Shown: in pieces, positions 7,587-30,420 of the stretch | How the letters are laid out: each line of letters starts with the position of its first letter | Position numbering within the stretch: the first letter of the stretch is position 1 | Virus record (IMG/VR): IMGVR_UViG_3300010413_000019 | Coordinates: 7,682 to 71,681 of that record | From: a virus | Direction: 5' to 3' (one strand) | Length of the DNA: 64,000 nt | Position numbers and translations under genes: made by a program | The notes under the pieces: generated by a model | What the model was told of the DNA's origin: nothing | The model's database searches: none | The model's input: the letters and a program-made list of their open reading frames with translations, nothing else

Positions 7587-10189
7587 TTTTTATCCTTTTC
7601 TTCATTTAGTCCATGCTCTATAAGGAACTCTTCGATCTCTTTAACCGACAGGTGGTTTTTGAGCGTGTACTGCTTGTCCCAGGACTTACCGATATCAAGT
7701 TCGGCTTCCATGAGGACCTCTTCACTGTAGATGCTCGGATGAGCATTCCAGCGCATCTCTTCGGTGAGAGTGTCATTGAGCCACTTGATCACTTCTGGTT
7801 CATTCTTGATGATGAAGTATCCGGCATCGTGGATTGTGTTGGCAGCGAAGATCTTGTCCTCGAAGCCTGAACCCTTGAGGCGCTTCTCTGTGGCGATAAG
7901 AGCACGGTTCATCAACTGTCCCCAGGACTGGGTCACAGCATTTGAAGCACTGCGTCCCTCAGAGGCAGCTTCGTAAGGTGTGGACTCTTTCCCTACCAGT
8001 GTTTTGGCGAGGATGGGGGTGCGAAGGCGTAAGCCGAAAGCACACTCGACGAAGCCGTGCTCAGATCCGAATTCAGTGTTCTTCTTGGTGAAGTCACCCA
8101 GACCGCTGTATAGCTCGTGGTATCCGATCTCGATGGCTCTGGCCACATCTTCCGGTAGACCGATGTTCGTGACAAGGGTTTTCCATGTCCCTCCGTACTG
8201 GAGAGCAAAGGATGGGGCTTTAGCCTGGTCTCGGATATCTTTCTGCTCTTTCTTGAACCGATTGATGTCTTCGACCGAGTTGATGTCGTACTGGCGCACA
8301 ACTTCAGGGTCGATGTAGACACCTTTTACTGTTACCGGTTCCTTGAGTTTGGAGAAGAATGCGATGGCTCTGAGTGAGTGGCCGTCAGCACCTTCGGAGA
8401 ACTCTTTGGTCTTCATCGGGTCACCTGACAGGATCGCACCGATACGGTCTTCAAGTGCAGCAAAGTCTGCCCCGGCAATGAGCCACCCATCGGGAGCCAC
8501 GAAGCAGGACTTGATCAGCTTGGCATACGTGGAACCGGAAGGGATGTTCTGCATGTTCGGGCTGTTTGATGATAGGCGGCCGGACTGGGTACCCCCGAGT
8601 TTGAGGTTACCGTTGAGCCAGACCGTACCGTCATTACGTGTGAAGGCCATCTCCTCAAAGTTCTTGATGAAGTTATCGAGGATGATGTCCACTTTGGAGA
8701 TATCGATCAGAGCGTTAAGCACTATCTCCTGCTCCTCCGTTTTGGCGAGGACCTTCAATTTGGCAAGTGTCTTGGCTCCGGTAGCAGGCTCTTTTGAATC
8801 TGTCTTGTCTATGACCGGAAAATCCCAGAACTCATACAGCAGCTTCTGCTTCTGTTTGGTGGATCCAGGATTGAAAGTGACATGTCTGAACTCATCGATG
8901 GATTTCATCTTCTTCTTGAGCTTGTTGTTGGCAGTCACCATTGCTTCGCGCTGCAGTAAAAAGTTGAAGCGCTTGATCGCCGGGGTATTCTCGAGGTCGT
9001 ACATTGCGTTGTAGCGGATGACCTCCAGTTGATCTCGAGTGCTCTTGACCTTGTTCAGATCCATCGGCAGACCGATGAGCATCATCTTGAGCAGCACATT
9101 GAGGGACGGCTGCATGATCTCTTCGTAGATCTTCAACTGATCATCGGCTATCACGGTCGGCATGTACTTGTCATGCACATACCATGTAGCCAGACTGTCA
9201 ACGAGGTTGTACTCGAGTAGGGTATCCATCTCGATCTTGGTGATATCGTTGATGTCCTCCAGGGCATAGTTCCCGGTGAACTCAAATGCGTTCTCTTTGA
9301 GACCCAGCTTGACATCTGCCGTGGAGTTTAGAGCCAGATAGGTGAGCAGCATTGTGTCCTGCACATCTTTGAACACCTCAAGGCCGTGGTGCATACCGAC
9401 GTAATCGGTAGAGTGCTCCATGAAGAGGGTGTAGATCAATACCTTGACATCATAGAGAGAGTTGTGGAACCATACCTTACCCTTGTAGGTCTCGAAGAAG
9501 ACCTTGAGTACTTCTTTGATTGGTTCGGTGATGGGGAAAGCCACACCGTTGTGTTGATCCCAGGCAAAGGAGATGGTTCCCAGCTCGGCCCTCTCGAATC
9601 TCAGACTGGTCGCTTCGATATCACTGGTGAGTGCCGGGATGTCCAGAAGTGAGAGTAGGGTGGTTGCAATAGCTTCAGGTTCTCTCGGATAGTATGCAGA
9701 GTGTATAATGTCTTTACCGAGTTCTTTGAATGTCCCGGCTTTATGCTGAACCAAAGTGTAAAGAGACATGTCGATCTTCTCTTGGACCACCGGGTTATAG
9801 AAGACCGCTTGATAGTTTGAAGATAAGATCACTTTGATATGTTCGTATCCGGGAAGCTTACAGCTCTTGACATAACCGAAATGTGGTTCGGCCTTACGTT
9901 CACCGGTAAGAACTTTGAAGTAGTTACCGTCTGCAACTAAGATCGTATCAATACCGAGATGTTCGATAGATTTAAGTAGAGTTGCGAGGTACTCCTTGAT
10001 AGTTGACACTTTTACTTTCTTGGCATCATCATATTTCAGAGTGAAGGCCACGATCTGATCTTTTGAGATGTCACTCTCTATCGGCTTGACGTAAGTGTCG
10101 TACAAAGGTTGCATCTTAAAGCTGGACTCTTTGATAAGCAGAGCAATCGAGAGATTGTCCGAAGAGTCACCAAATAGAATATGTCGCAT
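7583..10189 (-). CDS. family A DNA polymerase (N4 gp39-like)
   Basis: Exo I SDIEAT, Exo II FHNSLYD, Exo III YNLVD, SGRLSS.PNMQN, motif A DFAALE, motif B RDQAKAPSFALQYGG, motif C IHDA. Likely start is MRHILF at 10189 rather than 10270. Confidence 0.95.
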   Translation of the reverse strand: MRHILFGDSSDNLSIALLIKESSFKMQPLYDTYVKPIESDISKDQIVAFTLKYDDAKKVKVSTIKEYLATLLKSIEHLGIDTILVADGNYFKVLTGERKAEPHFGYVKSCKLPGYEHIKVILSSNYQAVFYNPVVQEKIDMSLYTLVQHKAGTFKELGKDIIHSAYYPREPEAIATTLLSLLDIPALTSDIEATSLRFERAELGTISFAWDQHNGVAFPITEPIKEVLKVFFETYKGKVWFHNSLYDVKVLIYTLFMEHSTDYVGMHHGLEVFKDVQDTMLLTYLALNSTADVKLGLKENAFEFTGNYALEDINDITKIEMDTLLEYNLVDSLATWYVHDKYMPTVIADDQLKIYEEIMQPSLNVLLKMMLIGLPMDLNKVKSTRDQLEVIRYNAMYDLENTPAIKRFNFLLQREAMVTANNKLKKKMKSIDEFRHVTFNPGSTKQKQKLLYEFWDFPVIDKTDSKEPATGAKTLAKLKVLAKTEEQEIVLNALIDISKVDIILDNFIKNFEEMAFTRNDGTVWLNGNLKLGGTQSGRLSSNSPNMQNIPSGSTYAKLIKSCFVAPDGWLIAGADFAALEDRIGAILSGDPMKTKEFSEGADGHSLRAIAFFSKLKEPVTVKGVYIDPEVVRQYDINSVEDINRFKKEQKDIRDQAKAPSFALQYGGTWKTLVTNIGLPEDVARAIEIGYHELYSGLGDFTKKNTEFGSEHGFVECAFGLRLRTPILAKTLVGKESTPYEAASEGRSASNAVTQSWGQLMNRALIATEKRLKGSGFEDKIFAANTIHDAGYFIIKNEPEVIKWLNDTLTEEMRWNAHPSIYSEEVLMEAELDIGKSWDKQYTLKNHLSVKEIEEFLIEHGLNEEKDKK

Positions 10190-10268
10190 AAGAAATCTTT
10201 CAGAAATGTGAGTTATGGTTGAGGGGTTTGAATGTTGATCCATGAGAGAGCACGGAAGTGCTTTGAAC

Positions 10269-10518
10269 AATTACAGTACAAATTACAGTACAAAATCGAG
10301 CTTAAAAAAATATGGCCCTATACAGTGGATTGAGTGGTGGACTGAGGACCCACCACACCACTATTTCTTAAAGTCCGATAAAGTCCGAAAACTAAGTCCC
10401 CATAGACATTTACCCCGCATTTATAATCCAACGTAGTCCAGCTTAATCCGGATGAATCCAGAAATAATTACAGTACATATTGCAGTATAAAAGTTTTATG
10501 CCGTATAATTACAGTATA
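10269..10518. mobile_element. attP-like site: integrase arm-type repeats and ~10-bp-periodic accessory-factor repeats
   Basis: AATTACAGTAYA at 10269, 10281, 10466 and 10507, plus a variant TATTGCAGTATA at 10478. AAGTCC x3 at 10371-10399 and a(a/g)tcc every 10 nt at 10425-10460. Lies immediately upstream of the integrase. Confidence 0.7.
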
Positions 10519-10535: not shown

Positions 10536-11759
10536 ATGGGTCGCACAACAAAACCTCTCAGCGATGCGGAGGTCCGCAAAGCAAAATCCCTCGAAAAGAT
10601 GTATAAGCTCTTTGACGGAGCGGGGCTCTATCTCGAGGTGAAGACAAATGGCCGTAAGGTATGGCGTACCGACTTCCGATGGGAAGGCAAGACCAAATCA
10701 TACACGATCGGAGACTATCCGACAGTGACTCTCTCTTCGGCCCGTATAACGTCCCAGGAGGTCCGTGAGGATGCCAGGAATGGCATTGATCCAGTACAGA
10801 AGAGAAAAGGCTCTGAGGGCTCTGAGAATGCTGTATCCATACAGACCTTTAAACAGGTTGGAGATGAGTTCATGGAACTCAAATCATACACGTACAGTCT
10901 GTCACACTACATGAAGCAGCACGGCCGGTTGAACAACTACGTCTACCCCTACATCGGATCCAGGGATATCAGGGAGATCACCAAGCAGGACATCATTGAT
11001 CTGATCAAGAATGTCCAGAAGGTAGAGACTAAGACCACCCGGCAGACTCAGAAGCATGAGACAGCCAAGAGAGTCTTTCAGTTGATCTCACAGATCTACC
11101 AGTACGCGGTGCACCATGACATCGTCATTGATGACATCCCCCGGAGGATAGAGTTCAGTTCAGTCATCCCCAGGATCACCCCGCAGAAGCTAAAGGCGAT
11201 CGTTGAACTCAACGGGGTCAGGATGATGTACGGGATGCTCTCGGAGTACCAGGGAGACTTCACAACGAGGAACGCATTGAAGTTCCTGGCTCTATCTGCA
11301 CTGCGGCCGGGGAACATCCGGAACATGAAGTGGGAGTACATCGACTTCCAGAATGATGTGGTCAACTTCCCAGGGGAAGCTATGAAGATGAAGGAGTCAT
11401 ACAGACTCCCTCTCACTTCCACACTGATCCAGTTGATCGATGAGATGAAACCCCTCACCCGGTACCATTCCGAGTATGTCTTCTGCTCGCCTATCGCTCC
11501 GAGCAAGCCGATGTCCGAGAACACTCTGAACTACGCCCATAAAAGAATTGGGATCGCAGACCATAATGCCCACGGCTGGAGAAGCTCGTTCTCAACCCTC
11601 TGTTATGAGAAGCAGAAGGATCACGGCTTCGGAGCTGAAGTAATAGAGAGCCAGTTGGCACACTCACTGGGGAATGCGGTGAAGACTGCCTATCTCAGGA
11701 GTGATTTCATCGTTGAGAGGCAGCTGCTGCTCCGATGGTGGGAGAAACTGATCACGTAA
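10536..11759 (+). CDS. int: tyrosine integrase, P4/IntA type with N-terminal arm-binding domain
   Basis: PLSDAEVRKAK...KLFDGAGLYL arm domain; catalytic residues R (ALRPG), K (MKMK), HGWR, LAH, AY; GGAGG RBS. Confidence 0.95.
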   Translation: MGRTTKPLSDAEVRKAKSLEKMYKLFDGAGLYLEVKTNGRKVWRTDFRWEGKTKSYTIGDYPTVTLSSARITSQEVREDARNGIDPVQKRKGSEGSENAVSIQTFKQVGDEFMELKSYTYSLSHYMKQHGRLNNYVYPYIGSRDIREITKQDIIDLIKNVQKVETKTTRQTQKHETAKRVFQLISQIYQYAVHHDIVIDDIPRRIEFSSVIPRITPQKLKAIVELNGVRMMYGMLSEYQGDFTTRNALKFLALSALRPGNIRNMKWEYIDFQNDVVNFPGEAMKMKESYRLPLTSTLIQLIDEMKPLTRYHSEYVFCSPIAPSKPMSENTLNYAHKRIGIADHNAHGWRSSFSTLCYEKQKDHGFGAEVIESQLAHSLGNAVKTAYLRSDFIVERQLLLRWWEKLIT

Positions 11760-11964: not shown

Positions 11965-12282
11965 TTATGTCTCCTTGTCTTTCATAAAACTAAATTGTAC
12001 CTGCGGCACTGAGTACTGGTTTACCGCATATTTGATGAGAAATTCCGTGTAACTTATCTGCGTACAATTAGAGAAATTTTTTACTTTAGACTGATAAGCC
12101 CACATGTGCATAAACTTGCTAGTATCTCCGTCATCAAAGATGTACTTTTTATTGGCATCATCCGGCTCAATTTCCCATAAATTTGCTGGATGACCATCTT
12201 CGCACATGTTCGAAATGATGTCGTATTCCTCCTGAGTCCAAGGTCTGCCATCATCTTTATAGATTGCTAGATTACGGAGCAT
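11965..12282 (-). CDS. hypothetical protein, tandem paralog 3
   Basis: Shares RN.A.YK.DG..WTQ.EY, KYIFD.G and Y(S/T)VPQVQFSF with the next two genes. Confidence 0.8.
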   Translation of the reverse strand: MLRNLAIYKDDGRPWTQEEYDIISNMCEDGHPANLWEIEPDDANKKYIFDDGDTSKFMHMWAYQSKVKNFSNCTQISYTEFLIKYAVNQYSVPQVQFSFMKDKET

Positions 12283-12284
12283 GA

Positions 12285-12605
12285 TTATTCCTTTTTGTCT
12301 TTCATAAAGCTGAACTGCACCTGCGGCACTGAATACTCTGGCTCTTCCTCATTATCTCGGAAGAACCCCTCAAACGTATATAATTTACAGTTATGGAAAT
12401 TTTCGTTGTTTTCTTGATCATCCCACGGAAACATGAAATATTGAAAGTCCCCATCATCAAAAATATATTTCTGTATTTTATCGGTTTTGGAAAGTTGCAT
12501 ACCATGCACATCTTCAAAATACAGAGCAATCTTTTCATATTCTTCTTGGGTCCAAAATGAGCCATCCTCCTTATAGAGAGCTATGTTACGAAGTGGTTTT
12601 GTCAT
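12285..12605 (-). CDS. hypothetical protein, tandem paralog 2
   Basis: Same motifs as its neighbours. Confidence 0.8.
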   Translation of the reverse strand: MTKPLRNIALYKEDGSFWTQEEYEKIALYFEDVHGMQLSKTDKIQKYIFDDGDFQYFMFPWDDQENNENFHNCKLYTFEGFFRDNEEEPEYSVPQVQFSFMKDKKE

Positions 12606-12928
12606 GATTTGTCCTTGAAAAAACTAAATTGAACCTGCGGTACTGTGTAGACCTCCTCGACTTCTTGCTCATCCACAAAGTAATTGTTGTACTCGAATAT
12701 TATACAATTCTTGAAATTTGGGTCTTTTTCTTGTTGTAGCCAGGGGTGCATAAACCCCTGTGGGTCATCTGTCCCATTATCAAAGATGTATTTTTCTGCT
12801 AACTCCTCATCGATGGGCTCAAATTCAGCATCTGGACCTTCGCAGAATTTAATAATCTTGCGATACTCTTTTTGGGTCCAGGGTTTACCATCCCGTTTAT
12901 AGAATGCTCTATTACGGCGTTGTGTCAT
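12602..12928 (-). CDS. hypothetical protein, tandem paralog 1
   Basis: Same motifs as its neighbours. Confidence 0.8.
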   Translation of the reverse strand: MTQRRNRAFYKRDGKPWTQKEYRKIIKFCEGPDAEFEPIDEELAEKYIFDNGTDDPQGFMHPWLQQEKDPNFKNCIIFEYNNYFVDEQEVEEVYTVPQVQFSFFKDKS

Positions 12929-13264: not shown

Positions 13265-13438
13265 TCAGGCACTCTGCCTGTGCTCCAGCACCCAGTTGAC
13301 CACTTCTTCGTAGACCCAGCGGGTACATCGAGGAGTGAGTTGTACTTTTGAGGGGAAGCCCTCGAGTTTTACGAATTCCCAGGCGGTAGACTTGCTCACT
13401 TTGAGCATCTCCGCGATCTCTTTGATTGATATAAGCAT
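13265..13438 (-). CDS. AlpA-family excisionase / recombination directionality factor (57 aa)
   Basis: Below the ORF-track cutoff. Translates as MLISIKEIAEMLKVSKSTAWEFVKLEGFPSKVQLTPRCTRWVYEEVVNWVLEHRQSA, with the AlpA pattern (HTH, FP, RW, EV..W). Confidence 0.85.
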   Translation of the reverse strand: MLISIKEIAEMLKVSKSTAWEFVKLEGFPSKVQLTPRCTRWVYEEVVNWVLEHRQSA

Positions 13439-13641
13439 TATTCTCTCAAAAGTGTTTCATTGTGTTTGATGGCTCTGAGGATCTCAGATATCCGGTAGTT
13501 CTGCCGGCGCTGCCACTTGACGCTCTGGAGTTTCAGGACAAGCTCGAAGGCCAGTCTGTTCTTCTCCAGCAGAGCTTCATCATAGGGCATGTCATGCCAT
13601 GTCGCCTTATTGACACCGTAGTAGTACTTACAAGTCTTCAT
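13438..13641 (-). CDS. hypothetical protein
   Basis: Likely start MKTCKYYYG at 13641; TAATG coupling to the excisionase. Confidence 0.6.
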   Translation of the reverse strand: MKTCKYYYGVNKATWHDMPYDEALLEKNRLAFELVLKLQSVKWQRRQNYRISEILRAIKHNETLLRE

Positions 13642-14047
13642 ACAGCTCCCACTTTTTGGTTTTAGGGTTGTAGTACTCGATCCGGTCGAAGTAATCAAGG
13701 GGGACATCTTGTATCGCCACATGCCATTCATCCGGGTTAGAGCCTACTGATAAAGCACTGAAGCACAGACCGTCCCAGTTAATTGTGAATTGTTTGTACT
13801 CTGAGGCAGGAGGTATATGAAGACCTTTCCCCCAGTTATAGCGCAGTCGGATACGGCCGACAGTGTCCAGCTCTTCATGGGTATTGAGCATGAAGCATGT
13901 CTCTTCCCACTCTTCATTTGAGCTGAACCATACAAAAGGCATCTCATACGGTAGTAGTTTACTTCTATCGTGAGGAGATCTTTTTACGATCCCCGACTCT
14001 TTGATCATAATGAGCTTGGGAACCAAGGTGTAATGATAGAGGTTCAT
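13628..14047 (-). CDS. hypothetical protein
   Basis: 139 aa; begins LYHYT...VWFS, weakly reminiscent of ADP-ribosyltransferase-like folds. Confidence 0.65.
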   Translation of the reverse strand: MNLYHYTLVPKLIMIKESGIVKRSPHDRSKLLPYEMPFVWFSSNEEWEETCFMLNTHEELDTVGRIRLRYNWGKGLHIPPASEYKQFTINWDGLCFSALSVGSNPDEWHVAIQDVPLDYFDRIEYYNPKTKKWELYEDL

Positions 14048-14497
14048 TCACTGCTCCTTCAGGATCCGCTGGACCTTGTTGTAATAGGTATAGTTTTTGG
14101 TTCCACCGTTGTATCTGCTGATGGCCCCGAAGTAGCCGTGACGTTTACGGTGGTACTCGAATAGTTTGCACCCGACCATAACACAGAAAGCCCGGTTGTG
14201 GGTCAGGATATGCTTGAGTGCTTTATCCGGTACGTGCTTGACCCATCTGAGTGACTGCTCTTTCGTAGCGAGCCATCTCAGTGTAGGGATCTGCACCTGC
14301 ATAACACCGTGGCTCTCCCCATCGTCTCCGGTCACATTACGGCAAGAGGTCTCGGCCTTTGCCATAGCCAGGATGGTGGAAGGGTATTCAGTGTACTTCT
14401 CGGCTTCCTTGTAGACTGTCTGCACACACTCTTTATCGTATGCTGCGGCCTGTATGGAGAGCCAGCAAGCACATAAGAGTGCGAGCAGTAATCTCAT
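14048..14497 (-). CDS. secreted lytic transglycosylase (SLT domain)
   Basis: Signal peptide ending AAA, catalytic AET(S), GVMQV, AISRYNGG. Confidence 0.85.
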   Translation of the reverse strand: MRLLLALLCACWLSIQAAAYDKECVQTVYKEAEKYTEYPSTILAMAKAETSCRNVTGDDGESHGVMQVQIPTLRWLATKEQSLRWVKHVPDKALKHILTHNRAFCVMVGCKLFEYHRKRHGYFGAISRYNGGTKNYTYYNKVQRILKEQ

Positions 14498-18129: not shown

Positions 18130-20937
18130 TAGTGTTCAGGACACACACCACTGTATCTCGGTTCATATCTGCGAAACCTATAATAGTTTCCTCAATAGAG
18201 GAACCCTCTTCCGGGAATACTCCCCCATCGTCAAACACATAGGTGTTGTAGGAGATCTCTCCGTCTTGATTGATATAGCCGACAGCGATCTTATCACCGT
18301 CTTCTACGATGATGCATCTGTCCGGGAGTGTGTATTCATCAGGCATCGATTCCCTCCAACTCATCAGGAATTTGGACAATACCCTGAGCAATCAGGATTT
18401 CCATACCAAGTTCGATATCTTGTTGTGTTGGTTCGAAACCTTCGATAAGTTTGAGGCCGTCTTCTTGGATCTCCATTACACGGTCTGTAACAATGCCCTT
18501 GTCAGCGAGCTCATTTAGTGTTTTGATGCAGTGGACGACACACTTAGCGGCGTGTAGTTCTTCCGGTGTCATCTCTTCAAGTGATTTAATTTCCATTTTT
18601 TGGTCCCTTTTGTTTGAAAGTTTTTATAGCAAGTAATGCAAGTATTGTAAGTATGGCCGCGATTGTGAATGAACAAGCAAATAGATCTCCGCTGCATACT
18701 TCAAAATCGGGTGTGTCTACAGGTGAGTAGAGTTGCATCACTCAGTCCCTGTTCTTGGATCGGTTTTTGAGGCATGTGTCCATTTAGATGTGAAGCTTTT
18801 ATTGTGGGAAGTAAAAGAGGTACACCCGGAATCCCATGCCATAGGATACCCGTCATGAATACCCGCAAAATGCCTTTTCAGAGCAGCCTTAGGGTTAGAC
18901 TCCCAGACCCAGATAGGGTCATCGATCTTCCAGTCATCATACGGCTTTACTTCGACGAGGTCATAATCACTGGCCCCGCGAGATTCGTAGAAACGCCCGT
19001 CTTTTTGATGTACGAATAAAGCACCGTCACTGCGCATTGAAACAACTGACATAGTTGAATTCCTATCAACACATAGAACTCTTACAGGCTCACCGTTGCG
19101 GTAACGGTACTCCTTATCCATTGAGATTGATTCAGACATGTTAATCCTTTTCTATCCCCCAGGCTTCCGCCAGGGACATCTGTATATTTGGTTGATTGAT
19201 TGATTTGAGGTACTCGTAGGCTCCGGCGCACATCTTTAGTGCTTGGTTCGAGCCAGAGGTATTCATGTCAGTATCGAGGTCATACACTGTTTTATGGCAG
19301 TTGAATGAGTTCATCGAATCTGATCGGAGCATCTCTTTGAGCTGGTCTACTCTCCCTTCCTTGAGATGCATGGCTTTACCATTATCTCTGAAGGGGCAGT
19401 TACTGCACATTTTTAGTACGCGGTATTCATTTGATTCTACGAGTTCCATGTATCCACCTATTGTTTATCTTTATAGCTGTCTTCTTCGGTGACTGCAGAC
19501 CATACCGCGGCAGCAAGAAAGAGTGCTGCAATTAGATATATCCAGTCCATGTTAACACCCGGATGGGTGCTTGAGGGCAAAAATCTTTGCCGCTCTGCGG
19601 GCAATACGCGCCCAGCGGGTATCATAGTTGATCTTCATGTTCTTCCTTTCTGCCAGGGTGGTGGTGGCAGCATGTCTTTGATATGCTCGAGTTCTTCATC
19701 GAAGTCTCGGCCACATAGATGGCATAGTCGTTGTAGTTTTTCTAGGGCTTCAAAGATCCCTGTAGCTCCTTCGAGCTCACCCTCGTAAAATGAGGAGTTG
19801 GCATCGCACATCTGGCGATCGTACTTTCTGTCATCAAGTGTGTCCATCTTGAGATCTCCTCTTTTTAATGTCGATCAGTTCAGCAGTAAAGCCATTTACG
19901 ATCTGCTTCATTGATTCTCTGGCGAACTCTAAGGCACGCTCTGCAGACTCTACGCTGCCGTCAGCTGCTATGTTCTTCATGTCCTCTATGACTTTTTCAG
20001 ACATAGCTTCGAAATCTATTTTGACTTTGTCCACTTCATCCATGCCGTCTCCTTTAGAGTTTTTCATAGAGCGCATTTGCTCTGTATGCTAAAGAGGTCT
20101 TCCCCCAAATAATGGTCTCGCACCATTCAATGCACCCTATGAAAAGCTCGGAGGTAGCCGAAGCTACCATGATTACATCGGTTTTGAGATGACCGGGATA
20201 TCTGTTTTAAGCTCAGCTGTGCACTTGAAGAGGCGCATTGTCTTGCCGAGATGTACCGGCTGTTTCATAGCCTCGTGTGCTTGTTTTTCAGATTTGAATT
20301 CGAGGGTGTCGAAGAAAGAACCATCCGCGTTGAATACGAGTCCACGGTAATTTTTAGTTACCTCAAGATCTGTTTTTTCACGCTGTGGCTTTGATGATGT
20401 TACGACTTTACCGTCGATACGGATCTCTACTGATGATTTTGTTAGTGACATTGGTGTTTCCTGTTTTGGGATTTCGATTTCTTGGCACAGGTTGGTCTGT
20501 ACTACGGTTGGCTCTTCGCAGAGCGATTCTGGTGGTGTTGGTTCAGGTTTAAGGCGCAATCGTACCCCTGAGGTGAATCCGCGGACATCCGTTTCTGGGT
20601 GTACGAATTCCCATTCCGGGTTGCCTGCCTCAAGTCCGTAGTCCATAGTCCATTCAAATTCCGCACCGGCATTTTCATGGAGTTTGTAGACGTAAGCCTC
20701 AATAGGGGTGAAGATTCTTGATTTAGCTGTTGGGGCACCTTTTGGCTGGTGAATACGGAAGATTATTTTGTTAGAGATTTTTGAAATGTCGATATCATCC
20801 GGAACTTTGTCCCAGTTGGCTGTATTTTCATTTTTGTCATACAGCAATTTGACACACCAGTCAAACTCTACGTTACCGTCACCCGATACAAGAAGCTCAT
20901 AGGCCTCTTTAGGGGTATAGATTTTAAAATCAGCCAT
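18098..20937 (-). CDS. cluster of small hypothetical genes (18098-18391, 18339-18596, 18738-19139, 19141-19449 Cys-rich, 19635-19847, 19834-20076, 20173-20937)
   Basis: Co-oriented ORFs; 19141-19449 has CSNCPF, FNCHKT and CAGA as probable metal ligands. Confidence 0.6.
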
Positions 20938-20939
20938 GA

Positions 20940-22004
20940 TTATGCCGCGTATTGAGCGTAGTCAGTATAGACTGTTTCCATCGGCTCACAGACCAGGATG
21001 TAATCACCGTTGTCATAGACAATACGTTGATCATCACTGAACTTGATCTGGCTCATACCGAAGCCTGTAATATCTTTGTACTCTGTACCTGCCTCATCTT
21101 TTTGGGCATAATTGATATAGAGGTTGCGGCGATGACTTGGTTTGTGGATCACATTTTCTGTGATATCCATGTGTTCACCGGTCTCTTTATCGATAAGGGC
21201 ACTGATCAGGATCTTCTCTTCAGACTCGCGGATGAAGCCGATGTTCAGGTCTTCAGCGAGTTCTTCGACATCTCCCCCATAGCGCATGTATTCATCTACG
21301 ATTGCTTTGAGGATATCAAAGCTGAAGGTGAGCATACCGGAGCTCATTTTGACGATGGCAGCAGTTGTATCCGCGTCAACACCGACACTTTCACAGTACT
21401 CACGTGTAGTCTCGCTGTCAAGCTTGTCATAACGGAAGTGATAGAAGATACGGCCTGGACGCTTGAGCATATAGTCGTTGATCATGTGCTCCTTGTTCTC
21501 TGTCAGGATCACCAGGCGTTTCTGCTTGCTGAGACCATCGAACATAGTCAGAAGACCGTTCTGCTGATCATCTTCATCGGTGATCTGGTAAGTTTTACCG
21601 AACTCATCGAAGATAAGTACACACTCACCGATAGAGTCGATGAAGCTTGTGAAATCATCACCATTGAATGATTCATTGATAGTGATTACGGGAAGCCCTT
21701 GGTCGATCATACGGTTAGCGATGACAGTGCTCAGCATTGTCTTACCCGAACCTTTGGTCCCAGTAAGAAGGATCCCTGTTGAGTTCTCACGAGATTCGTA
21801 TGTGCTGATCACTTTTTCAGCTCTACGGTTGATTGAACCATACAGCTCTTTTGGCGTTTCGAAACGGTCTTTGACCGCTGTAAGGTACATGCCAAACATG
21901 TTCACGCCGACTGTATATACCTTTGCCGGCAATCTGTCCAGTACTGTACTTTCATCAATATTACCGATCTTTACAGTGTTTCCACTTACAAAGAATTTTT
22001 TCAT
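20940..22004 (-). CDS. AAA+ ATPase
   Basis: GTKGSGKT, IFDEFGK, RPGRI. Confidence 0.88.
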   Translation of the reverse strand: MKKFFVSGNTVKIGNIDESTVLDRLPAKVYTVGVNMFGMYLTAVKDRFETPKELYGSINRRAEKVISTYESRENSTGILLTGTKGSGKTMLSTVIANRMIDQGLPVITINESFNGDDFTSFIDSIGECVLIFDEFGKTYQITDEDDQQNGLLTMFDGLSKQKRLVILTENKEHMINDYMLKRPGRIFYHFRYDKLDSETTREYCESVGVDADTTAAIVKMSSGMLTFSFDILKAIVDEYMRYGGDVEELAEDLNIGFIRESEEKILISALIDKETGEHMDITENVIHKPSHRRNLYINYAQKDEAGTEYKDITGFGMSQIKFSDDQRIVYDNGDYILVCEPMETVYTDYAQYAA

Positions 22005-22041
22005 AGATACCCTCTTTTAATTTTGGTTTGGTTTGACAGCT

Positions 22042-22233
22042 TTACGCTGCCAGTGCTCTTTTAGCTGCACGTTTACGTGCTCCGCGGCCTACTTTGTTCT
22101 TTGGTTCTGAACGGACCCAAGTACCTACCGATGCAATGATAGGTTTATCCAACGTACCAGCATTTTTAAAGTGTGGTTTGACTACCTTGTAGCCCATAGC
22201 CGCTGCGTATTTTTCATACTGTTTCAGATTCAT
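22042..22233 (-). CDS. small basic hypothetical protein
   Basis: Likely start MNLKQYEK after AAGGG RBS. Confidence 0.5.
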   Translation of the reverse strand: MNLKQYEKYAAAMGYKVVKPHFKNAGTLDKPIIASVGTWVRSEPKNKVGRGARKRAAKRALAA

Positions 22234-22275
22234 GATTTCCCTTTTGTTGATGGTGGTCGTAGACCATATTTGTGG

Positions 22276-22351
22276 TGGCCAATGCGGGTGGACTCGAACC
22301 ACCAACCTTCGGATTTGGAATCCGGTGCTCTACCAGTTGAGCTACGCAAAG
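22276..22351 (-). tRNA. tRNA-Trp (CCA), atypical
   Basis: CTTTGCG-TA-GCTC-AACTGGTA-GAGC-A-CCGGA-TTCCAAA-TCCGA-AGGTT-GGTGG-TTCGAGT-CCACC-CGCATTG-G-CCA. Has a C27.A43 mismatch and two U.U pairs in the acceptor stem. Confidence 0.9.
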
Positions 22352-22401
22352 ATTTTGAAGGCCCCTATCTCTTCAGTGAGAACCACTTCAGGGCCTATGT
22401 T

Positions 22402-22496
22402 CACCATCCCGGACTCGAACCGGTGACGCCCTAACGGGATAAGTCATAACCCCGATGTTGACTTTTTTGAGCCGCTGTCCATACAGCTTATGGTGC
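22402..22496 (-). ncRNA. tRNA-like RNA or degenerate tRNA
   Basis: CACCAT/ATGGTG closing stem, D-like hairpin GCTG-TATGGA-CAGC, T arm CCGG-TTCGAGT-CCGG; no canonical anticodon arm. Confidence 0.45.
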
Positions 22497-22775
22497 ATAC
22501 TAAGACTTGGTTCCCAATTTCTACCGTGCCGCTTGGGGCGTCTCTTGTAGTTCCAAGTCTCATACGATTCGTATTGTTGTCTGTACCATGCCCGGTACAG
22601 TGGGTTTGGAGTATTAATGAATTTTACATTTCGAGGCTGATCCACCCCTACTGGCCGAGCTTAATCGGAGTCCTAGTTAACCACTCAAAGTTAGGACTGC
22701 ATACTTACCTCCAATGAGATAACTATGCAATATAAGATTGATTGTGTATTTTCCAGAGCAGAGAGGGGATCCTCT

Positions 22776-24197
22776 CTACTTCTTGACTGATAGGTCAAGA
22801 TCAAGGTCTTTGGCAGCCTTGAGGCCCATCATAGTGAGCATAGTGTTGGCATAAGATGCACCTCCGCCGACTGAACCCTTGTCCCCACCGCCGATAACGG
22901 TAGCAGGTACATTGATTTTAGCCATAGCATCGGCACGGTATTTCTCAGCCTGGAGCCATGTATCAAGCTTTTGCTGCAGGGCGTTGTCCGCCTGCAGGAT
23001 CACACGTTTTTTGTGTGCCTGAGCATCAGCAAGGGCTTTGATTTTCTTGGCTTCGATAAGAGAGCGCTCATAGCGTTCCTGCTCAGCTTTCTTCTCTAGT
23101 TTTGCAACTTCGAGGTTCTTCTGGGCTTCGATGGTTTGCTTTTTCTTTTCAGTCTCAGCGATCGTTGTCTCTTTGATCTGGTTCACAAGTTGCTTAGCTT
23201 CAGCCTCGGCTACGAGTTTTTGACCGTTTGCCTTGGCAGCTTCAGCTTCCAATAGGGATTTACGGCGATCGTTCTCTGCAAGTGCAGCAGCTGCTTCCGC
23301 ATCACGTTGTTTACCGATCAGGGTACGGACCTTTTCTTCTGGGTTCACGTATGTGACGCGGGCAGTAACGACTTTCAGGTTGTAGTTCTCGATATCATCA
23401 AGACCTTGACGCACCGGTTGGCCGTTCTTATCCATAACAAGTTTGACAACTTCATTGATCTGATCAGATTGCTCTGTCTTGGATCCATCACGGTTAATGA
23501 TCTCACCATCGACTACCATCTTGTTGCCCTGGCGTGCACCAGTGCTGTTTTGAACTTCCTGTGTCACTTGAGTCTTATACAGACCGTTCATGAACTGGTC
23601 AGAGAAGTATTCATCGAAGTCTGAACCACGTTTAGTGATGTACTCTTGGATCGACATCAGACGAGCTGAGTTGATGGCTGCAGAGTAGAAAGTAGACTTG
23701 AGCAGGTTGTTGACAAGAGCTTCATCCGATCCGAACTCTTTATGGATCTTCAGCATCCCGTCACGACTTGTAGGCAGTTCCACACGGGCGATACCGTAGA
23801 AGTCTGCTTTCGCTGCATCAGAGAAGCGGATAGTCGGAGATGCGATATGATCAGCAGTTGATACCCGCTCTTCGTTACCGCCATCTTGTCCCGCACGTTC
23901 GCCAGTGAACATAGGAGTAGACACGGCTACGACTTTGTCATATTCATACACATTACCGAGAGCGCTTAACTTAATACCTGGGTCGGTGATAACAGATAAA
24001 TGCCCTGTAGGGTACTGCACAACGTAGTTCTTATCTGAATCGGCAATGAACACGATCGAAGTGATCATAAACAGTGCACCGATTGAGATACCGATTATTT
24101 TGAATGTCTTTTTGTATGCTTCACTGATAAAAGAAATCAGTGGGATAACAAATACCGCTAAAGCAATAACGATAAGACCAAAAATAAATGTTCCCAT
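22776..24197 (-). CDS. SPFH/band-7 (flotillin-like) membrane protein
   Basis: Two N-terminal TM helices, SPFH-like core, long Ala/Glu coiled coil; start MGTF at 24197 after AAGGA. Confidence 0.85.
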   Translation of the reverse strand: MGTFIFGLIVIALAVFVIPLISFISEAYKKTFKIIGISIGALFMITSIVFIADSDKNYVVQYPTGHLSVITDPGIKLSALGNVYEYDKVVAVSTPMFTGERAGQDGGNEERVSTADHIASPTIRFSDAAKADFYGIARVELPTSRDGMLKIHKEFGSDEALVNNLLKSTFYSAAINSARLMSIQEYITKRGSDFDEYFSDQFMNGLYKTQVTQEVQNSTGARQGNKMVVDGEIINRDGSKTEQSDQINEVVKLVMDKNGQPVRQGLDDIENYNLKVVTARVTYVNPEEKVRTLIGKQRDAEAAAALAENDRRKSLLEAEAAKANGQKLVAEAEAKQLVNQIKETTIAETEKKKQTIEAQKNLEVAKLEKKAEQERYERSLIEAKKIKALADAQAHKKRVILQADNALQQKLDTWLQAEKYRADAMAKINVPATVIGGGDKGSVGGGASYANTMLTMMGLKAAKDLDLDLSVKK

Positions 24198-24224
24198 TTT
24201 TTTCCTTGGGTGTTGGGTTTGTTT

Positions 24225-25065
24225 AACCCCGGAGTGATCAGCGTGGATCCTCACACACCGGGTTGATTCCGACCTGCGGTATTGACTTGCATCGAAACAG
24301 ATTGGTCATCTGCATTAGGTTCAAGTGGGTTTCCCCTCCCTGATACAAGCGGTGCATTAAACCGGCAGGAACCAGAAGAGTTCTCCCTCCTTTACCATTC
24401 AGAGGGCTAGATTCGTAGTTGTCTTTGCCCGTTGGCTACGTCCACAACTATCTCGATCTATCGGTTTTAAAAACGGGTGGATTAATAGTTACCACCATTA
24501 CCCATGTCTCGGACGCATGGTTGACCACAACTGCCTATCGAGTTGCCAGACTAAGGAGTTGGTAAGGCTCCAAGGAACACACCGCACCTGTGGCGGATAC
24601 ACCTTGCTATCGTACATAGCAAGTCCAGTTAAGCAGCTTCATACATGTACGACATTTGGCTGCTAGATGTGCTCACTGGAACCTTATGGCGCCCGCACAA
24701 GGGTTTGAACCTCGTGCCTATCGGTAGCGTGGTCGATAGGATTGTCGAGCCTCTTCGGAAGAGCTACGCTGCCCCTATTCCAAGGGATGCTCTCTACGAC
24801 AACAACGCAAACGTGGCAATACCGTTCCGATTCAGATTGATCAACATCTTTCACGTATTAAGCTACCACTGGGATTGTTGAGCCGTCCTACTATACTCTA
24901 CGGGCATATACATACTCCCGGTAACCGACCGGGCTTGGTTCATTTGATATCGTTCAATAGAGGTACCTTACCAATAACTAAAACGTCCTATCTATCCTCA
25001 AGGAAGGGTGTTGGTCCGAAGACCTCAAAGGCTGGTAAGACCTCTATGAACCTGGGTCACCAGTC
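24225..25065 (-). ncRNA. large, densely structured non-coding RNA region (~850 nt)
   Basis: No minus-strand ORF of 60 aa or more; more than 15 hairpins and long-range stems, including a C(UUCG)G loop and an embedded tRNA-like 3' end. Confidence 0.65.
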
Positions 25066-25080
25066 AGGCTCATAGCGACC

Positions 25081-25449
25081 TTACAGGCCACATATAAGTG
25101 ACAGAGATCCCCTTTCAGTGATCTTGATCTGCCACAGTGCTTTTGCGTACCCCATCATAAAGATGAGTTGTTTCTCCGACTTATGCACATACTTGGGGTT
25201 AACTGAGTAAACCCGTACAACATAGTCGTTCTCACGGAGAATAACGCGCTCTTGTTTGCTAAACCAGGCGCGCAGCTGTCTCTTGCTCTTGAATCCAAAG
25301 AAATAGCGGTAAGCATCGGCACTCTCCAAGATATCTTCGAAGTCTTCCCCGAAAGTTGGGTGTTCGGCGTCTGCATGATTGAAGAGCGCAACTTTATCGG
25401 CATAAGGACCATATCCATCTGTCCTATGTTCGACACGGTAGATCAGCAT
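25081..25449 (-). CDS. hypothetical protein
   Basis: 122 aa (YRVEH...GPY...HP...FGF...WF), typical small phage gene, with RBS. Confidence 0.7.
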   Translation of the reverse strand: MLIYRVEHRTDGYGPYADKVALFNHADAEHPTFGEDFEDILESADAYRYFFGFKSKRQLRAWFSKQERVILRENDYVVRVYSVNPKYVHKSEKQLIFMMGYAKALWQIKITERGSLSLICGL

Positions 25450-25596
25450 TCAAATCCTTTGTTTAGACTCTCTCGAGATGGCTACTATCTAGCATTCGCA
25501 AGAAGGCCCAAGCCAAAGGCTCGGGTGAGGAGAAAATTTGGAGAGTTCTGAGGAGAAATTGTGGTGAACAGGTTGTTTATTCCCTGTTGCATTTAA

Positions 25597-25612
25597 GGGC
25601 GCGGATGCGCCC
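25597..25612 (-). promoter_or_regulatory. hairpin promoter candidate (template-strand GGGCGC-GGAT-GCGCCC)
   Basis: One of seven C-GGAT-G hairpins; preceded by TGCATTTAA at the same spacing as the 25736 copy. Confidence 0.65.
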
Positions 25613-25735
25613 AGAGGTTATTTAACAGTCCGCTGGACTGCTACCGAAACCTGATTTCATAGGGCACCTCCTAGAAAAAAAATCGTGGACAAGCCTCACA
25701 CCCTCTTTTGGGTGCTATCTTGTCCTGCATTTAAA

Positions 25736-25749
25736 CCCACGGATGTGGG
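25736..25749 (-). promoter_or_regulatory. hairpin promoter candidate (CCCAC-GGAT-GTGGG)
   Basis: Same motif and spacing as the 25597 copy. Confidence 0.65.
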
Positions 25750-25751
25750 CG

Positions 25752-25964
25752 TTAGTCGCCGTGTAGGTGTGCATAATCATCATCATTCTGATAATCTTTG
25801 TTAAGTTCCATCTCTTGGATGCCGAACCACTCGTATTCCCAAGCTGTTCGGCCTTCATGATCGATGGAGGCTACTGCGGCCTCTCGGGTGTCGTAGACAC
25901 CTACGATGTAACCGCCCTGTTGGTCGTACTCATTGACAAATCGTAGTACCGCGAATAACTGCAT
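25752..25964 (-). CDS. hypothetical protein
   Basis: 70 aa, AAGGAG RBS; NEYDQ.G.Y..GV motif. Confidence 0.7.
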   Translation of the reverse strand: MQLFAVLRFVNEYDQQGGYIVGVYDTREAAVASIDHEGRTAWEYEWFGIQEMELNKDYQNDDDYAHLHGD

Positions 25965-25973
25965 TGGTTCTCC

Positions 25974-27002
25974 TTATGATAACATGTATTCACTCTTACG
26001 GATGTCCTCCGCAAGGTCATAACTGAACTTCTTCAACTGAACATCTGTACCGGTAATCTCGCTGATGATATCGCTGAGCAGGTTGCTCTCTGCAATTTCA
26101 GCCAAGATGTCACGGTAGAAGTCCATCACCTTTGGCATGTGGTTCGGATGGCATGTGAAGGCATCATGGATATGTGCTACTTCAAAGTCTGCACGTCTGA
26201 TAATCTCACGTGCGACATACCCGTCAATGCTGTGGATGATGTTGGGCGCCAAGGATGTTTTACGGTCACTTGGTTGGTTCGGGTAGAAGCGGTATGTGAA
26301 CTGCATGTGATTGAGTTCATCCACTTCAATACGTGCATCGACTTGGTCGACTACGTTTACCTTTGCCACGTGACCGTCTGGCAATGTCCACTGGTGGAAG
26401 TATGCGAACGGGTCCCAAGCATTGTTGATGACCTGCATGACAGCCTCTGCACCCGTGAACTTCTCCATGAGAATCTCGTAGAACATGTTAAGCTCCATCG
26501 TATCCTCACCAAGTAGCTCTTTAGGCTTGGCCTTAGAGTTATAGTAGTGAGTCATGATAGGCTTTTTGATGTAGCTACGGGTGAACATAGGGTTCTCGCC
26601 GGCTTTAGCGATAAGTGCGTCCGATACGGCTGTATAGGCGTCATTACGCTGGCCGTTGTTGATAAGGTTTACAGCTTCGGCTGTCTTCTTACACCCTGAG
26701 AGTGCGGCCATGATTTGTAGCCCACTTGCAGTGGCATCCATGAACATGTTGTGGTTGATAGGCTTACCGTCTACCGCATCGGCAAAGGCATAGCAGGCCT
26801 TGCGGAACATCAAAGGCTCTTCAGCCTGAGATGCCCACTCATCAAGATTGTTCAGGATATCTGTTTGGTTCTGGTTTACCCACTGGATGCGGGTTTCGAA
26901 CAACTCTTTGTCAAGGCCGTAGGTATTGGCCATATCGATTTTCAACATGTCGAAGCCTGTGAAGCGCTCCGCGAATGAGATAGGTTTTGGTATTGCTGAC
27001 AT
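25974..27002 (-). CDS. RNA polymerase II subunit 2 (N4 gp16-like, T7-type catalytic half)
   Basis: DATASGLQ (motif A), R..IKKPIMTHYY (motif B), PNIIHSIDG, IHDAF (motif C). Confidence 0.95.
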   Translation of the reverse strand: MSAIPKPISFAERFTGFDMLKIDMANTYGLDKELFETRIQWVNQNQTDILNNLDEWASQAEEPLMFRKACYAFADAVDGKPINHNMFMDATASGLQIMAALSGCKKTAEAVNLINNGQRNDAYTAVSDALIAKAGENPMFTRSYIKKPIMTHYYNSKAKPKELLGEDTMELNMFYEILMEKFTGAEAVMQVINNAWDPFAYFHQWTLPDGHVAKVNVVDQVDARIEVDELNHMQFTYRFYPNQPSDRKTSLAPNIIHSIDGYVAREIIRRADFEVAHIHDAFTCHPNHMPKVMDFYRDILAEIAESNLLSDIISEITGTDVQLKKFSYDLAEDIRKSEYMLS

Positions 27003-27164: not shown

Positions 27165-28073
27165 CTATGCTACCCCTGTAAGTATCTCTGCTTTGGCAAA
27201 CTGTAGGATTGCCTTCTTGTACTCCGAGCCCTGAAGGTTGATATCATAGCCCTGTGAGTACTGGCGCCCGCGCTTGTCGAACTTCCACACGAAATAGAAC
27301 TGGTTCTCATTGTCCAGTTCATACTGGTATACACGGTCTGATTGAGCACACCGCGCATTGTGCTGTTCGATTTTACGCAGTTCGACAGGATCCGTGATGT
27401 CTCCAGTCTCCTTGGGAAGTTCCTTCTCCGCGAGCATACATGTATTGAGTTCCCAAGCAATGCTTTGGAGTTTGTTCAACACATCAAGACTCTGTTTCAT
27501 ACCGTGGTAGTTCTGCTCGCCGAGGATGGCTGAGCTGTCTTCGAGAAGTAGTCCCCCATGTCTGTTGTCTGTCCAAGGACGTGGTTCACACGTCATCGGT
27601 GGCAGGTACATAGCCATGTGGATTTTCTGAAGAGTCTCATCTTCGAGTTTGAAGAATGGTTTGATGACTGCCGTATCATGGTCGTGCTCCGGACTGAAGG
27701 CATGAAGTATCTCATACACTCCGGCATCCTTGCACACTGCAAGTATCTCTGCACCACACTTGACTGCATCAAGTTGCTCGAGACCGATACGGTGACCTAA
27801 CATCGTGGCTACCGCCTGGATAGGCGTGACACTGTCTAACGTACTGAGGACCGAATAGAACAGCTCAACAGCTATCTCTTCTGGTTCCATAGATATCTTG
27901 GCGATACGCTCATCCTTGGATTTGAAATACTCCTTACCAAGGTACTCACGCACTGCAACTACACATTGCTGATAGTTCGGGTTACCGTTAAGGTCTCCGA
28001 TGTCCTGTTTAATCCACACTGGGATATTCTTTTTACTGTAAGTCTCTTCGACTGTTAATTGAGTTTGATACAT
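27165..28073 (-). CDS. RNA polymerase II subunit 1 (N4 gp15-like)
   Basis: LPPM.CEP, FDKRGRQYSQGY.INLQG..YKKA. Confidence 0.93.
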   Translation of the reverse strand: MYQTQLTVEETYSKKNIPVWIKQDIGDLNGNPNYQQCVVAVREYLGKEYFKSKDERIAKISMEPEEIAVELFYSVLSTLDSVTPIQAVATMLGHRIGLEQLDAVKCGAEILAVCKDAGVYEILHAFSPEHDHDTAVIKPFFKLEDETLQKIHMAMYLPPMTCEPRPWTDNRHGGLLLEDSSAILGEQNYHGMKQSLDVLNKLQSIAWELNTCMLAEKELPKETGDITDPVELRKIEQHNARCAQSDRVYQYELDNENQFYFVWKFDKRGRQYSQGYDINLQGSEYKKAILQFAKAEILTGVA

Positions 28074-30038: not shown

Positions 30039-30113
30039 TGCGCTGTAGCTCAGAGGCAGAGCAGCTCCCTGTTAAGGAGATGGTCGGAGGTTCGACCCCT
30101 CCCAGTGCAGCCA
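30039..30113 (+). tRNA. tRNA-Asn (GTT)
   Basis: TGCGCTG/CAGTGCA acceptor, CT-GTT-AA loop, GGAGG-TTCGACC-CCTCC T arm, encoded CCA. Confidence 0.92.
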
Positions 30114-30345: not shown

Positions 30346-30420
30346 TGCGTCTTAGCCAAGTGGTAAGGCAGCTGGTTTTGGTCCAGTCATTCCCAGGTTC
30401 GATCCCTGGAGACGCATCCA
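30346..30420 (+). tRNA. tRNA-Gln (TTG)
   Basis: TGCGTCT/AGACGCA acceptor, TT-TTG-GT loop, CCAGG-TTCGATC-CCTGG T arm, CCA. Confidence 0.92.

Follow-up and report, generated by a model that had tools for sequence, protein, structure and literature searches.

Mismatched stems in a phage-encoded tRNA-Trp(CCA) look more like protection from host tRNA-cutting enzymes than like a UGA-reading device

The phage and its tRNA-Trp gene

We analyzed a 64-kb stretch of DNA (the window) from a 71.7-kb IMG/VR virus record that is rated 97% complete. Judging by its matches to PHROG families, the record represents an uncultured, N4-like phage. These matches include a virion RNA polymerase, both subunits of an N4-type RNA polymerase, and a family A DNA polymerase (Table 1), as well as terminase, the portal protein, and the major head protein, which is 69% identical to its counterparts in N4-like phages of Vibrio and Klebsiella. 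At the DNA level, no cultured relative was found, as a Megablast search with positions 20000-26000 against cultured phages gave no match. The minus strand holds most of the genes up to about 31.3 kb (the early and middle genes), and the plus strand holds the later ones. Two sequencing runs contain most of the stretch; both are from one study and are labelled as marine sediment metagenomes, and the record may derive from one of them.

The whole record has three tRNA genes. ARAGORN and Rfam both confirmed the tRNA-Trp(CCA) gene that the initial annotation had reported, and placed it on the minus strand. As also reported, it is the sole tRNA on the early/middle strand; the genes for tRNA-Asn and tRNA-Gln are on the plus strand. 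The tRNA-Trp matches Rfam RF00005 with a score of 56.7 bits (gathering cutoff of 29, E = 1.5e-9) across model positions 1-71. Its full cloverleaf is the minimum-free-energy fold, and the energy of this fold is not better than that of shuffled sequences (z = -0.98).

Table 1. Features of the tRNA-Trp gene and other genes in the window. Positions are those of the window.
Feature	Position	Strand	Basis
tRNA-Trp(CCA) gene, 76 nt, CCA encoded	22276..22351	-	ARAGORN, Rfam
G73 discriminator	22279	-	sequence
U71 and U70, 3' side of the acceptor tandem U.U; no C at 69-71	22281..22282	-	cmscan, sequence
A43, 3' partner of the open pair C27.A43	22309	-	cmscan, sequence
Anticodon C34 C35 A36	22316..22318	-	ARAGORN, Rfam, sequence
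C27, 5' base of the open pair at the top of the anticodon stem	22325	-	cmscan
U2 and U3, 5' side of the acceptor tandem U.U	22349..22350	-	cmscan
tRNA-Asn(GTT), G27.A43, regular acceptor stem	30039..30113	+	ARAGORN, Rfam
tRNA-Gln(TTG), G27.U43, regular acceptor stem	30346..30420	+	ARAGORN, Rfam
Family A DNA polymerase	7583-10270		PHROG match
N4-type RNA polymerase, two subunits	25974-27002 and 27165-28073		PHROG matches
Virion RNA polymerase, >3074 aa, runs past the window end	54777-63998		PHROG match

In the Rfam alignment (cmscan), exactly three pairs are marked as non-standard: 2-71, 3-70, and 27-43. These are the irregularities that the initial annotation had described, namely, a C27.A43 mismatch that leaves an anticodon stem of 4 bp and two U.U pairs in the acceptor stem (U2.U71 and U3.U70). 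Read from the sequence, the acceptor strands are 5' CUUUGCG and 3' CGCAUUG, so that the U.U pairs lie between C1-G72 and the pairs U4-A69, G5-C68, C6-G67, and G7-C66. The anticodon stem is CCGGA/UCCGA, with C27.A43 above C28-G42, G29-C41, G30-C40, and A31-U39, and it closes a loop of 7 nt (UUCCAAA). The pairs of the D stem, the T stem, and the lower anticodon stem are intact, and the conserved residues of the D and T loops are all kept. Both classical UGA-suppressor changes are absent: position 9 is A, and position 24 is G, which pairs with C11. The CNG motif (C28-G29-G30 opposite C40-C41-G42) and A37 are also intact. If we compare the acceptor end to the bacterial type (G73, A1-U72, G2-C71, and G3-C70), then only G73 matches.

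The initial annotation had cautioned that the tRNA-Asn of this phage has a G27.A43 mismatch. This is correct, and with G27.U43 in tRNA-Gln, the 27-43 pair is weak or open in all three tRNAs of the phage.

The tRNA-Trp gene lies in the early/middle block and is probably transcribed with those genes; a scan for promoters and terminators around it gave nothing useful. We found no relative of the adjacent ATPase in viral contigs, and at 10 loci with relatives of the second subunit of the RNA polymerase (RNAP2; 47-52% identity), no tRNA was present (0/10). Contigs from three sequencing runs, one of which does not cover the gene, contained no informative variant of the core of the tRNA-Trp; the matches to this core were the probable source contig and tRNAs from other organisms. 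Just upstream of the gene, at about 22395-22440, is a degenerate stretch that resembles the remnant of a T arm. No tRNA is called there at E values of up to 10; the only match is a sub-threshold one to YrlA (17.1 bits versus 69), and its fold is no better than those of shuffled sequences.

Mismatches at 27-43 and in the acceptor stem of phage tRNAs

To count open 27-43 pairs, we scanned viral contigs with a tRNA-Trp-like pattern and kept the matches that ARAGORN called as tRNA-Trp(CCA). Each sample is defined by one fixed T-loop motif, and all of the counts are among the matches listed. For the anticodon stem, we considered unique sequences in which the four lower pairs are intact (Table 2). 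The IMG/VR contigs include proviruses, which may carry host tRNAs.

Table 2. State of the 27-43 pair in viral and bacterial tRNAs, among the matches listed.
Sample	Called/matches listed	Unique	Lower four pairs intact	27-43 mismatch	27-43 G.U
Viral Trp, sample 1	91/118	90	82	18	10
Viral Trp, sample 2 (other T-loop motif)	72/119	67	61	20	9
Bacterial Trp (sample 1 pattern)	114/120	102	99	5	11
Viral Asn(GTT)	106/122	103	103	16	21
Viral Arg(TCT)	106/119	98	93	5	3
Viral Gln(TTG)	108/121	101	100	5	

Among the matches listed, 38 of the 143 viral tRNA-Trp (both samples) have a mismatch at 27-43, versus 5 of 99 bacterial tRNA-Trp (p = 1.1e-5) and 5 of 93 viral tRNA-Arg (p = 2.2e-5). This rate is marginally higher than for viral tRNA-Asn (16/103, p = 0.043, among the matches listed). 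Mismatches in the anticodon stems of the listed viral tRNA-Trp are almost confined to the two terminal pairs: the three middle pairs are mismatched in 0/90 sequences from sample 1 and in at most 2/67 from sample 2. Cultured phages can have the open pair as well. It is present in 5 of 10 that we looked at (Vibrio phages KIT05 and D479, Pseudomonas phage XD2, Aeromonas phage Aes012, and Xanthomonas phage XAJ24), but these ten were picked by similarity and not at random. Overall, phage tRNAs often have an open 27-43 pair, tRNA-Trp most often of all, and the window tRNA is one case of many. That the pair is open in phage-borne tRNA-Trp at three to five times the bacterial frequency seems not to have been described.

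We also looked for close relatives of the window tRNA. Its exact anticodon-arm pattern had one match in viral contigs, which was an unrelated tRNA-Trp with G43. The same tRNA backbone had 118 matches in metagenome contigs, with a Watson-Crick pair at 27-43 in 116, G.A in two, and C.A in none. These matches are mostly cellular tRNAs rather than relatives.

The two U.U pairs in the acceptor stem were incidental in the initial annotation, but in these sequence comparisons, they are the more unusual feature and are both Trp-specific and phage-specific. We define the tandem signature as mismatches at both 2-71 and 3-70 while 1-72 and the pairs from 4-69 to 7-66 are intact. Among the matches listed, the signature is present in 9/90 viral tRNA-Trp from sample 1 and 6/67 from sample 2 (15/157 overall); some of these rows are near-identical, which leaves about a dozen distinct sequences. 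It is absent from the bacterial tRNA-Trp listed (0/102) and from the viral tRNA-Asn (0/103), tRNA-Arg (0/98), and tRNA-Gln (0/101) listed, or 0/302 for the other viral tRNAs together. Among the matches listed, the Fisher exact test gives p = 5.7e-4 versus bacterial tRNA-Trp and p = 2.9e-6 versus viral tRNA-Asn and tRNA-Arg. Rfam supports eight of the nine signature tRNAs from sample 1, with scores of 42-67 bits and with the same two pairs marked; the ninth fell below the cutoff.

In signature tRNAs, both bases of each mismatch are pyrimidines in every case, usually two U, and the mismatches are found on several quite different backbones of D arm and T arm. We aligned 18 signature tRNAs (the window tRNA-Trp and 17 others). 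G73 is kept in 18/18, and the CCA is encoded in all of them except for two whose ARAGORN-called sequence ends early. The window tRNA-Trp has the features of this class: a Watson-Crick pair at 1-72, pyrimidines opposite each other at 2-71 and 3-70, intact pairs from 4-69 to 7-66, G73, and CCA. The head protein of the window phage is absent from all five of the other signature records that we checked, so these tRNAs are carried by more than one phage lineage. In each of six phages with the signature, the tRNA-Trp is the only tRNA to have it, and none of the 18 other tRNAs in the stretches examined is mismatched at 2-71 or 3-70. The cultured Xanthomonas phage XAJ24 combines the signature with an open 27-43 pair. 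By a hand tally among the matches listed, the 27-43 pair is open in 9 of 15 signature tRNAs versus 33 of 142 other viral tRNA-Trp; because several signature rows are near-identical, this link is only suggestive.

The pairs that the signature replaces are highly conserved in bacteria. Among the 102 bacterial tRNA-Trp listed, 98 have G3-C70, 83 have G2-C71, 87 have A1-U72, and 92 have G73. Of the 157 viral tRNA-Trp listed, 81 have G3-C70, 49 have G2-C71, and 139 have G73. At least two Cs are present at positions 69-71 in 97/102 of the bacterial sequences versus 62/157 of the viral ones, and 44 of the viral sequences have no C at these positions (again among the matches listed). The signature recurs, occurs only in tRNA-Trp, has pyrimidines on both strands, and sits on several backbones, so it looks as if it was selected rather than having drifted. 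We found no description of an acceptor signature in phage tRNA-Trp in the literature that we searched. A Trp-specific and phage-specific tandem of pyrimidine-pyrimidine mismatches in place of the nearly invariant G2-C71 and G3-C70 therefore seems to be undescribed.

UGA codons and candidate explanations

In Blastocrithidia, a tRNA-Trp(CCA) whose anticodon stem has 4 bp reportedly reads UGA, and older work in E. coli is said to have found that decoding is relaxed if 27-43 is unpaired. The initial annotation had proposed this gene as a candidate UGA-readthrough tRNA. To examine the use of TGA in the window, we assembled a rough gene set from 83 ORFs; a few of the small ones may be spurious, and the open-ended polymerase is not included. 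The long genes of the window, including the 3074-aa ORF, are open under translation table 11, with no in-frame TGA. The 83 ORFs end in TGA (26), TAA (44), or TAG (13), and TGA ends 22 of the 53 ORFs on the strand of the tRNA-Trp (minus) and 4 of the 30 on the late strand. TGA is not avoided in this genome. The median in-frame run from the stop codon to the next stop is 11 codons for TGA, 10 for TAA, and 13 for TAG. With long genes open, TGA stops common, and extensions of similar length, nothing in the genome indicates that readthrough is in use.

A single pair of genes is in frame across a TGA (14048-14497 followed by 13628-14047). We rejected programmed readthrough for this pair, as neither half belongs to a family in which a fusion would be visible, and in-frame neighbors follow TAA as well. 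The sole sizeable late gene that ends in TGA (46501-47058) aligns end to end with phrog_2130.

The other phages with a 4-bp-stem tRNA-Trp that we sampled do not appear to be recoded, either. From each of ten viral records whose tRNA-Trp has a 4-bp stem, we took a single stretch of 17-20 kb and compared these to stretches of that size from ten records with a 5-bp stem. The coverage by table-11 ORFs was 0.80-0.95 in the 4-bp group and 0.70-0.96 in the 5-bp controls, and reading TGA as sense added nothing (median change of +0.002 versus -0.002). TGA ends 5-71% of the genes of at least 100 aa in these records, and this fraction tracks GC content. Its medians were 0.27 for the 4-bp group and 0.39 for the 5-bp group (Mann-Whitney p = 0.62), although with n = 10 in each group, a modest shift would be undetectable. 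None of the ten phages with a 4-bp stem looks recoded.

The proposal of a UGA-readthrough tRNA thus stands in one part: the tRNA has every sequence feature of the published 4-bp-stem class. Against it, the genome shows no sign of use, and the open 27-43 pair is special neither to tRNA-Trp nor to this phage. The open pair also has an alternative meaning that has been tested, which is resistance to the nuclease P2-OLD (as described in the available part of PMC12445682).

Two tRNA-cutting enzymes with Toprim domains act near the mismatched positions. According to the portion of PMC12445682 that was available, P2-OLD is a Toprim nuclease whose cuts in the anticodon stem follow nucleotides 28 and 40, at a paired CNG motif with A37. 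A phage tRNA-Thr escapes it when a change at position 43, by which the 27-43 pair is lost, is combined with a change in the CNG motif; either change alone is insufficient, and shortening of the stem is not protective by itself. As for the acceptor stem, the available text of PMC12916289 reports that the Toprim domain of the retron Eco2 nicks double-stranded, C-rich acceptor stems at 6-7 nt from the 3' end; in cell-free reactions, tRNA-Trp is among the tRNAs that it nicks, and tRNA-Gln is cut as well.

Our favored explanation, which we hold tentatively on the basis of the sequence and of these comparisons, is that this is a working tRNA-Trp of a phage-specific class and that its oddities most likely stem from protection against stem-cutting nucleases. 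It would be a phage-encoded tRNA that reads UGG and is presumably charged. It belongs to a recurrent, phage-specific class with a Watson-Crick pair at 1-72, the tandem of pyrimidines, G73, and an encoded CCA, whose members often have an open 27-43 pair as well. Both oddities would most likely protect against host defense nucleases that cut the stems of tRNAs, and such nucleases may have selected for them. At the Eco2-type site, the paired and C-rich 70-71 is replaced by unpaired U, and at the P2-OLD-type site, the top pair (27-43) is lost. If the 4-bp stem does add UGA readthrough, this would be tolerated as a by-product and would not be what was selected. The layout that makes a tRNA susceptible to P2-OLD (the CNG motif, A37, and a paired top) is found in 88/102 bacterial versus 69/157 viral tRNA-Trp among the matches listed. 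Furthermore, the 27-43 pair is weak or open in each of the three tRNAs that this phage encodes, and this suits a general cause better than one specific to UGA. Against the nuclease explanation, the CNG motif and A37 are intact in the window tRNA-Trp, and shortening alone is unprotective (available part of PMC12445682). Also, Eco2 cuts tRNA-Gln (available text of PMC12916289), yet 0/101 of the viral tRNA-Gln listed have the tandem, so Eco2-type pressure alone does not explain the restriction to tRNA-Trp. Finally, protection from nucleases leaves the choice of mismatches over A-U pairs unexplained. A broader claim, that many phage lineages have repeatedly evolved a dedicated form of tRNA-Trp(CCA) against a defense directed at tRNA-Trp (for example, Toprim cleavage), seems possible but doubtful to us.

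The mismatches might instead be tolerated variation, with relaxed constraint at 27-43, and perhaps in the acceptor stem, in fast-evolving and AT-biased phage tRNAs that top up the decoding of Trp codons. This accounts well for 27-43: the pair is weak in all three tRNAs of the phage, and the anticodon-stem mismatches of the viral tRNA-Trp listed lie nearly all at the two terminal pairs. Also, in the available part of PMC13092985 (a 2026 survey of 42,109 bacterial genomes), 4-bp stems were found in 8.9% of 38,615 tRNA-Trp(CCA) genes and in 5.6% of all bacterial tRNAs, and many species had only that form. It does not account for pyrimidines on both strands at 2-71 and 3-70, for the recurrence on different backbones, or for a signature that is confined to the tRNA-Trp of each phage (0/18 other tRNAs) and is absent from the 302 other viral tRNAs listed, and so we consider it unlikely. 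That the gene is decaying or non-functional is very improbable. In favor of decay, two stems have three mismatches between them, the folding energy does not improve on that of shuffled sequences, and a T-arm-like remnant lies just upstream; but the Rfam score is high, the conserved residues of the D and T loops, G73, and the CCA are retained, and the same mismatches recur in complete phage genomes in tRNA-Trp that are otherwise normal. Given the score and the recurrence of the pattern, a dead gene is not a likely explanation. Another idea is that the signature acts through translation rather than nucleases: recognition of the tRNA by TrpRS, another synthetase, EF-Tu, or a tRNA-Trp-sensing factor might be altered. 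The signature is Trp-specific, with G73 in all 18 cases, and the conservation of G3-C70 (98/102) and G2-C71 (83/102) in the bacterial tRNA-Trp listed suggests that these pairs are important to some Trp-specific partner. However, the published identity set of bacterial TrpRS comprises G73, 1-72, 5-68, A9, and the anticodon and is not known to include 2-71 or 3-70. Also, no synthetase, tRNA-repair, or tRNA-modifying gene was found among the window proteins scanned with Pfam (55) or PHROGs (39), and the 55 proteins scanned with Pfam include no Thg1-like, CCA-adding, or RNA ligase enzyme (most of the late-region proteins were scanned with PHROGs only). We view altered handling as quite unlikely.

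Selection for decoding of UGA is distinctly improbable. Under this explanation, the open C27.A43 pair lets the CCA anticodon read UGA (by C:A wobble), which would serve for programmed readthrough or would blunt termination at UGA in infected cells. In the available part of PMC13092985, 757 "Blastocrithidia-like" genes are defined by an open top pair and the absence of A9C and G24A. The window tRNA fits this definition, and its C:A mismatch is the type seen most often in the 757 (35%). In the same source, changes of G43 increased the flexibility of the anticodon arm in simulations, and an overexpressed C27A mutant of E. coli tRNA-Trp increased UGA readthrough by about 2.5-fold, although an earlier in vitro study that it cites saw no effect of C27A alone. 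In 13 of 19 bacterial orders, UGA stops are less frequent in genomes whose sole form is the 4-bp one (available part of PMC13092985). UGA decoding is also the sole rival that explains why the open pair is most frequent in tRNA-Trp (among the matches listed). The genome itself argues against it: long genes are open, TGA ends 26/83 ORFs, extensions after TGA are like those after the other stops, the in-frame pair at 14048-14497 and 13628-14047 lacks family evidence of a fusion, and the late gene at 46501-47058 matches its PHROG from end to end. In addition, the ten phage contigs with 4-bp stems have normal coding density and TGA stops, and the anticodon is CCA, not UCA.

Under the broader claim of a dedicated form that evolved repeatedly, the 4-bp stem of the window tRNA would make infected cells leakier at UGA too, the stop codon of 22 of the 53 ORFs on the early/middle strand. 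If the signature is an escape from a defense that is directed at tRNA-Trp, then there is an unrecognized arms race and a simple sequence marker for it. If the signature tunes decoding instead, then it is informative about the extent to which a virus can relax its host's reading of UGA.

Comparison with known systems

In phages that have recoded TGA, and in bacteria that use genetic code 4, a suppressor tRNA with the anticodon UCA inserts Trp at UGA. The window tRNA has CCA instead of UCA, and the window phage is not recoded.

Phage tRNAs that evade anticodon nucleases through changes in the anticodon loop are described in PMC10264068 (in the part available). The shared idea is that phages supply tRNAs that resist cleavage and stand in for those of the host. 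Only the anticodon loop is treated there, and the main text never uses "Trp," "acceptor," or "anticodon stem." For Eco2, the cut site is where the window tRNA-Trp has U.U pairs and no C; this link is only positional, and no phage escape tRNA is reported in the available part of PMC12916289. The P2-OLD-resistant phage tRNA-Thr(UGU) resembles the window tRNA-Trp in the loss of the 27-43 pair through position 43 and in the shortened stem, but it carries another amino acid, and the CNG motif is unchanged in the window tRNA-Trp (compared to the available description in PMC12445682).

The closest likeness in decoding is to the Blastocrithidia-like class of PMC13092985, as far as its available text describes it: the window tRNA-Trp shares the CCA anticodon, the open 27-43 pair, the 7-nt loop, A9 and G24, and even the C:A mismatch. 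It differs in that it is encoded by a phage, presumably beside the host's own tRNA-Trp, and in that the window genome shows neither reassignment nor avoidance of UGA. The word "phage" is absent from the main text of PMC13092985, and the acceptor signature of the window tRNA-Trp is not described for the Blastocrithidia-like class in the text available. Overall, the window tRNA-Trp is a textbook member of a kind that has been described in bacteria, and its carriage by a phage is new.

TGA between adjacent ORFs and stop-codon use

Two in-frame ORFs on the minus strand of the early/middle block (see table) are separated by nothing except a TGA, and an ATG follows it directly. Readthrough of this TGA is predicted to give a 289-amino-acid fusion protein. 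We found no family evidence on this pair, whether the ORFs were considered fused or separate. Across the window, stop-codon use depends on the strand: in a crude set of 83 ORFs (which lacks the open-ended polymerase), TGA ends 22 of the 53 ORFs on the early/middle strand; of the 30 late-strand ORFs, only 4 end in TGA and 21 in TAA, the dominant stop there.

Features of the window near the integrase, at the TGA-separated ORFs, and beside the tRNA-Trp gene
Feature	Position	Strand	Details
ATTACAGTAC-like repeat	10266-10492		4 copies, immediately upstream of integrase
P4-type tyrosine integrase	10536-11759	+	domains Arm-DNA-bind_3, Phage_int_M, Phage_integrase
Three paralogous small genes in tandem	11965-12928	-	105, 106, 108 aa
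AlpA-like regulator	13265-13438	-	near integrase
In-frame ORF pair	13628-14497	-	149 + 139 aa
T-arm-like hairpin	about 22395-22440	-	GGTTCGAGTCC core, acceptor-like tail; inside ORF 22388-22645
Gene upstream of tRNA-Trp	22776-24254	-	phrog_11908 match

Integrase region and tandem paralogues

Integration modules are uncommon among N4-like phages. The integrase gene lies inside the early/middle block, on the strand opposite to that of the block. The three small paralogues are spaced about 320 nt apart and are conserved at their ends and in one internal segment; no family match was found for them.

Surroundings of the tRNA-Trp gene

At the encoded 3' end of the tRNA-Trp (22270-22279, minus strand), G73-CCA is followed directly by a second CCA and then by CAAA. 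Between 40 and 90 nt upstream of this gene lies the T-arm-like hairpin, possibly what is left of another tRNA gene. This stretch received no tRNA call, and its sole match was to YrlA, below threshold (17.1 bits versus 69). Farther upstream, the product of the phrog_11908-matching gene resembles SPFH/band-7 (stomatin/prohibitin-like) proteins from crAss-like, Vibrio, and Sinorhizobium phages (26-35% identity by tblastn).

Comparison with other tRNA-Trp genes

In the GenBank record of the cultured Xanthomonas phage XAJ24 (KU197013.1), a 174-nt "tRNA-Trp" feature is annotated at 863-1036. This feature seems over-long, because ARAGORN identifies a normal 75-nt tRNA-Trp at the feature's 3' end (962-1036). 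We also compared two samples of tRNA-Trp loci from viral contigs (L012-L129 and L615-L733) with bacterial tRNA-Trp loci from genome contigs (L250-L369), among the matches listed. Within these matches, G2-C71 and G3-C70 are nearly fixed in the bacterial tRNAs and are largely lost in the viral group, and loss of the anticodon stem's paired CNG motif is far more common in viral than in bacterial tRNA-Trp.
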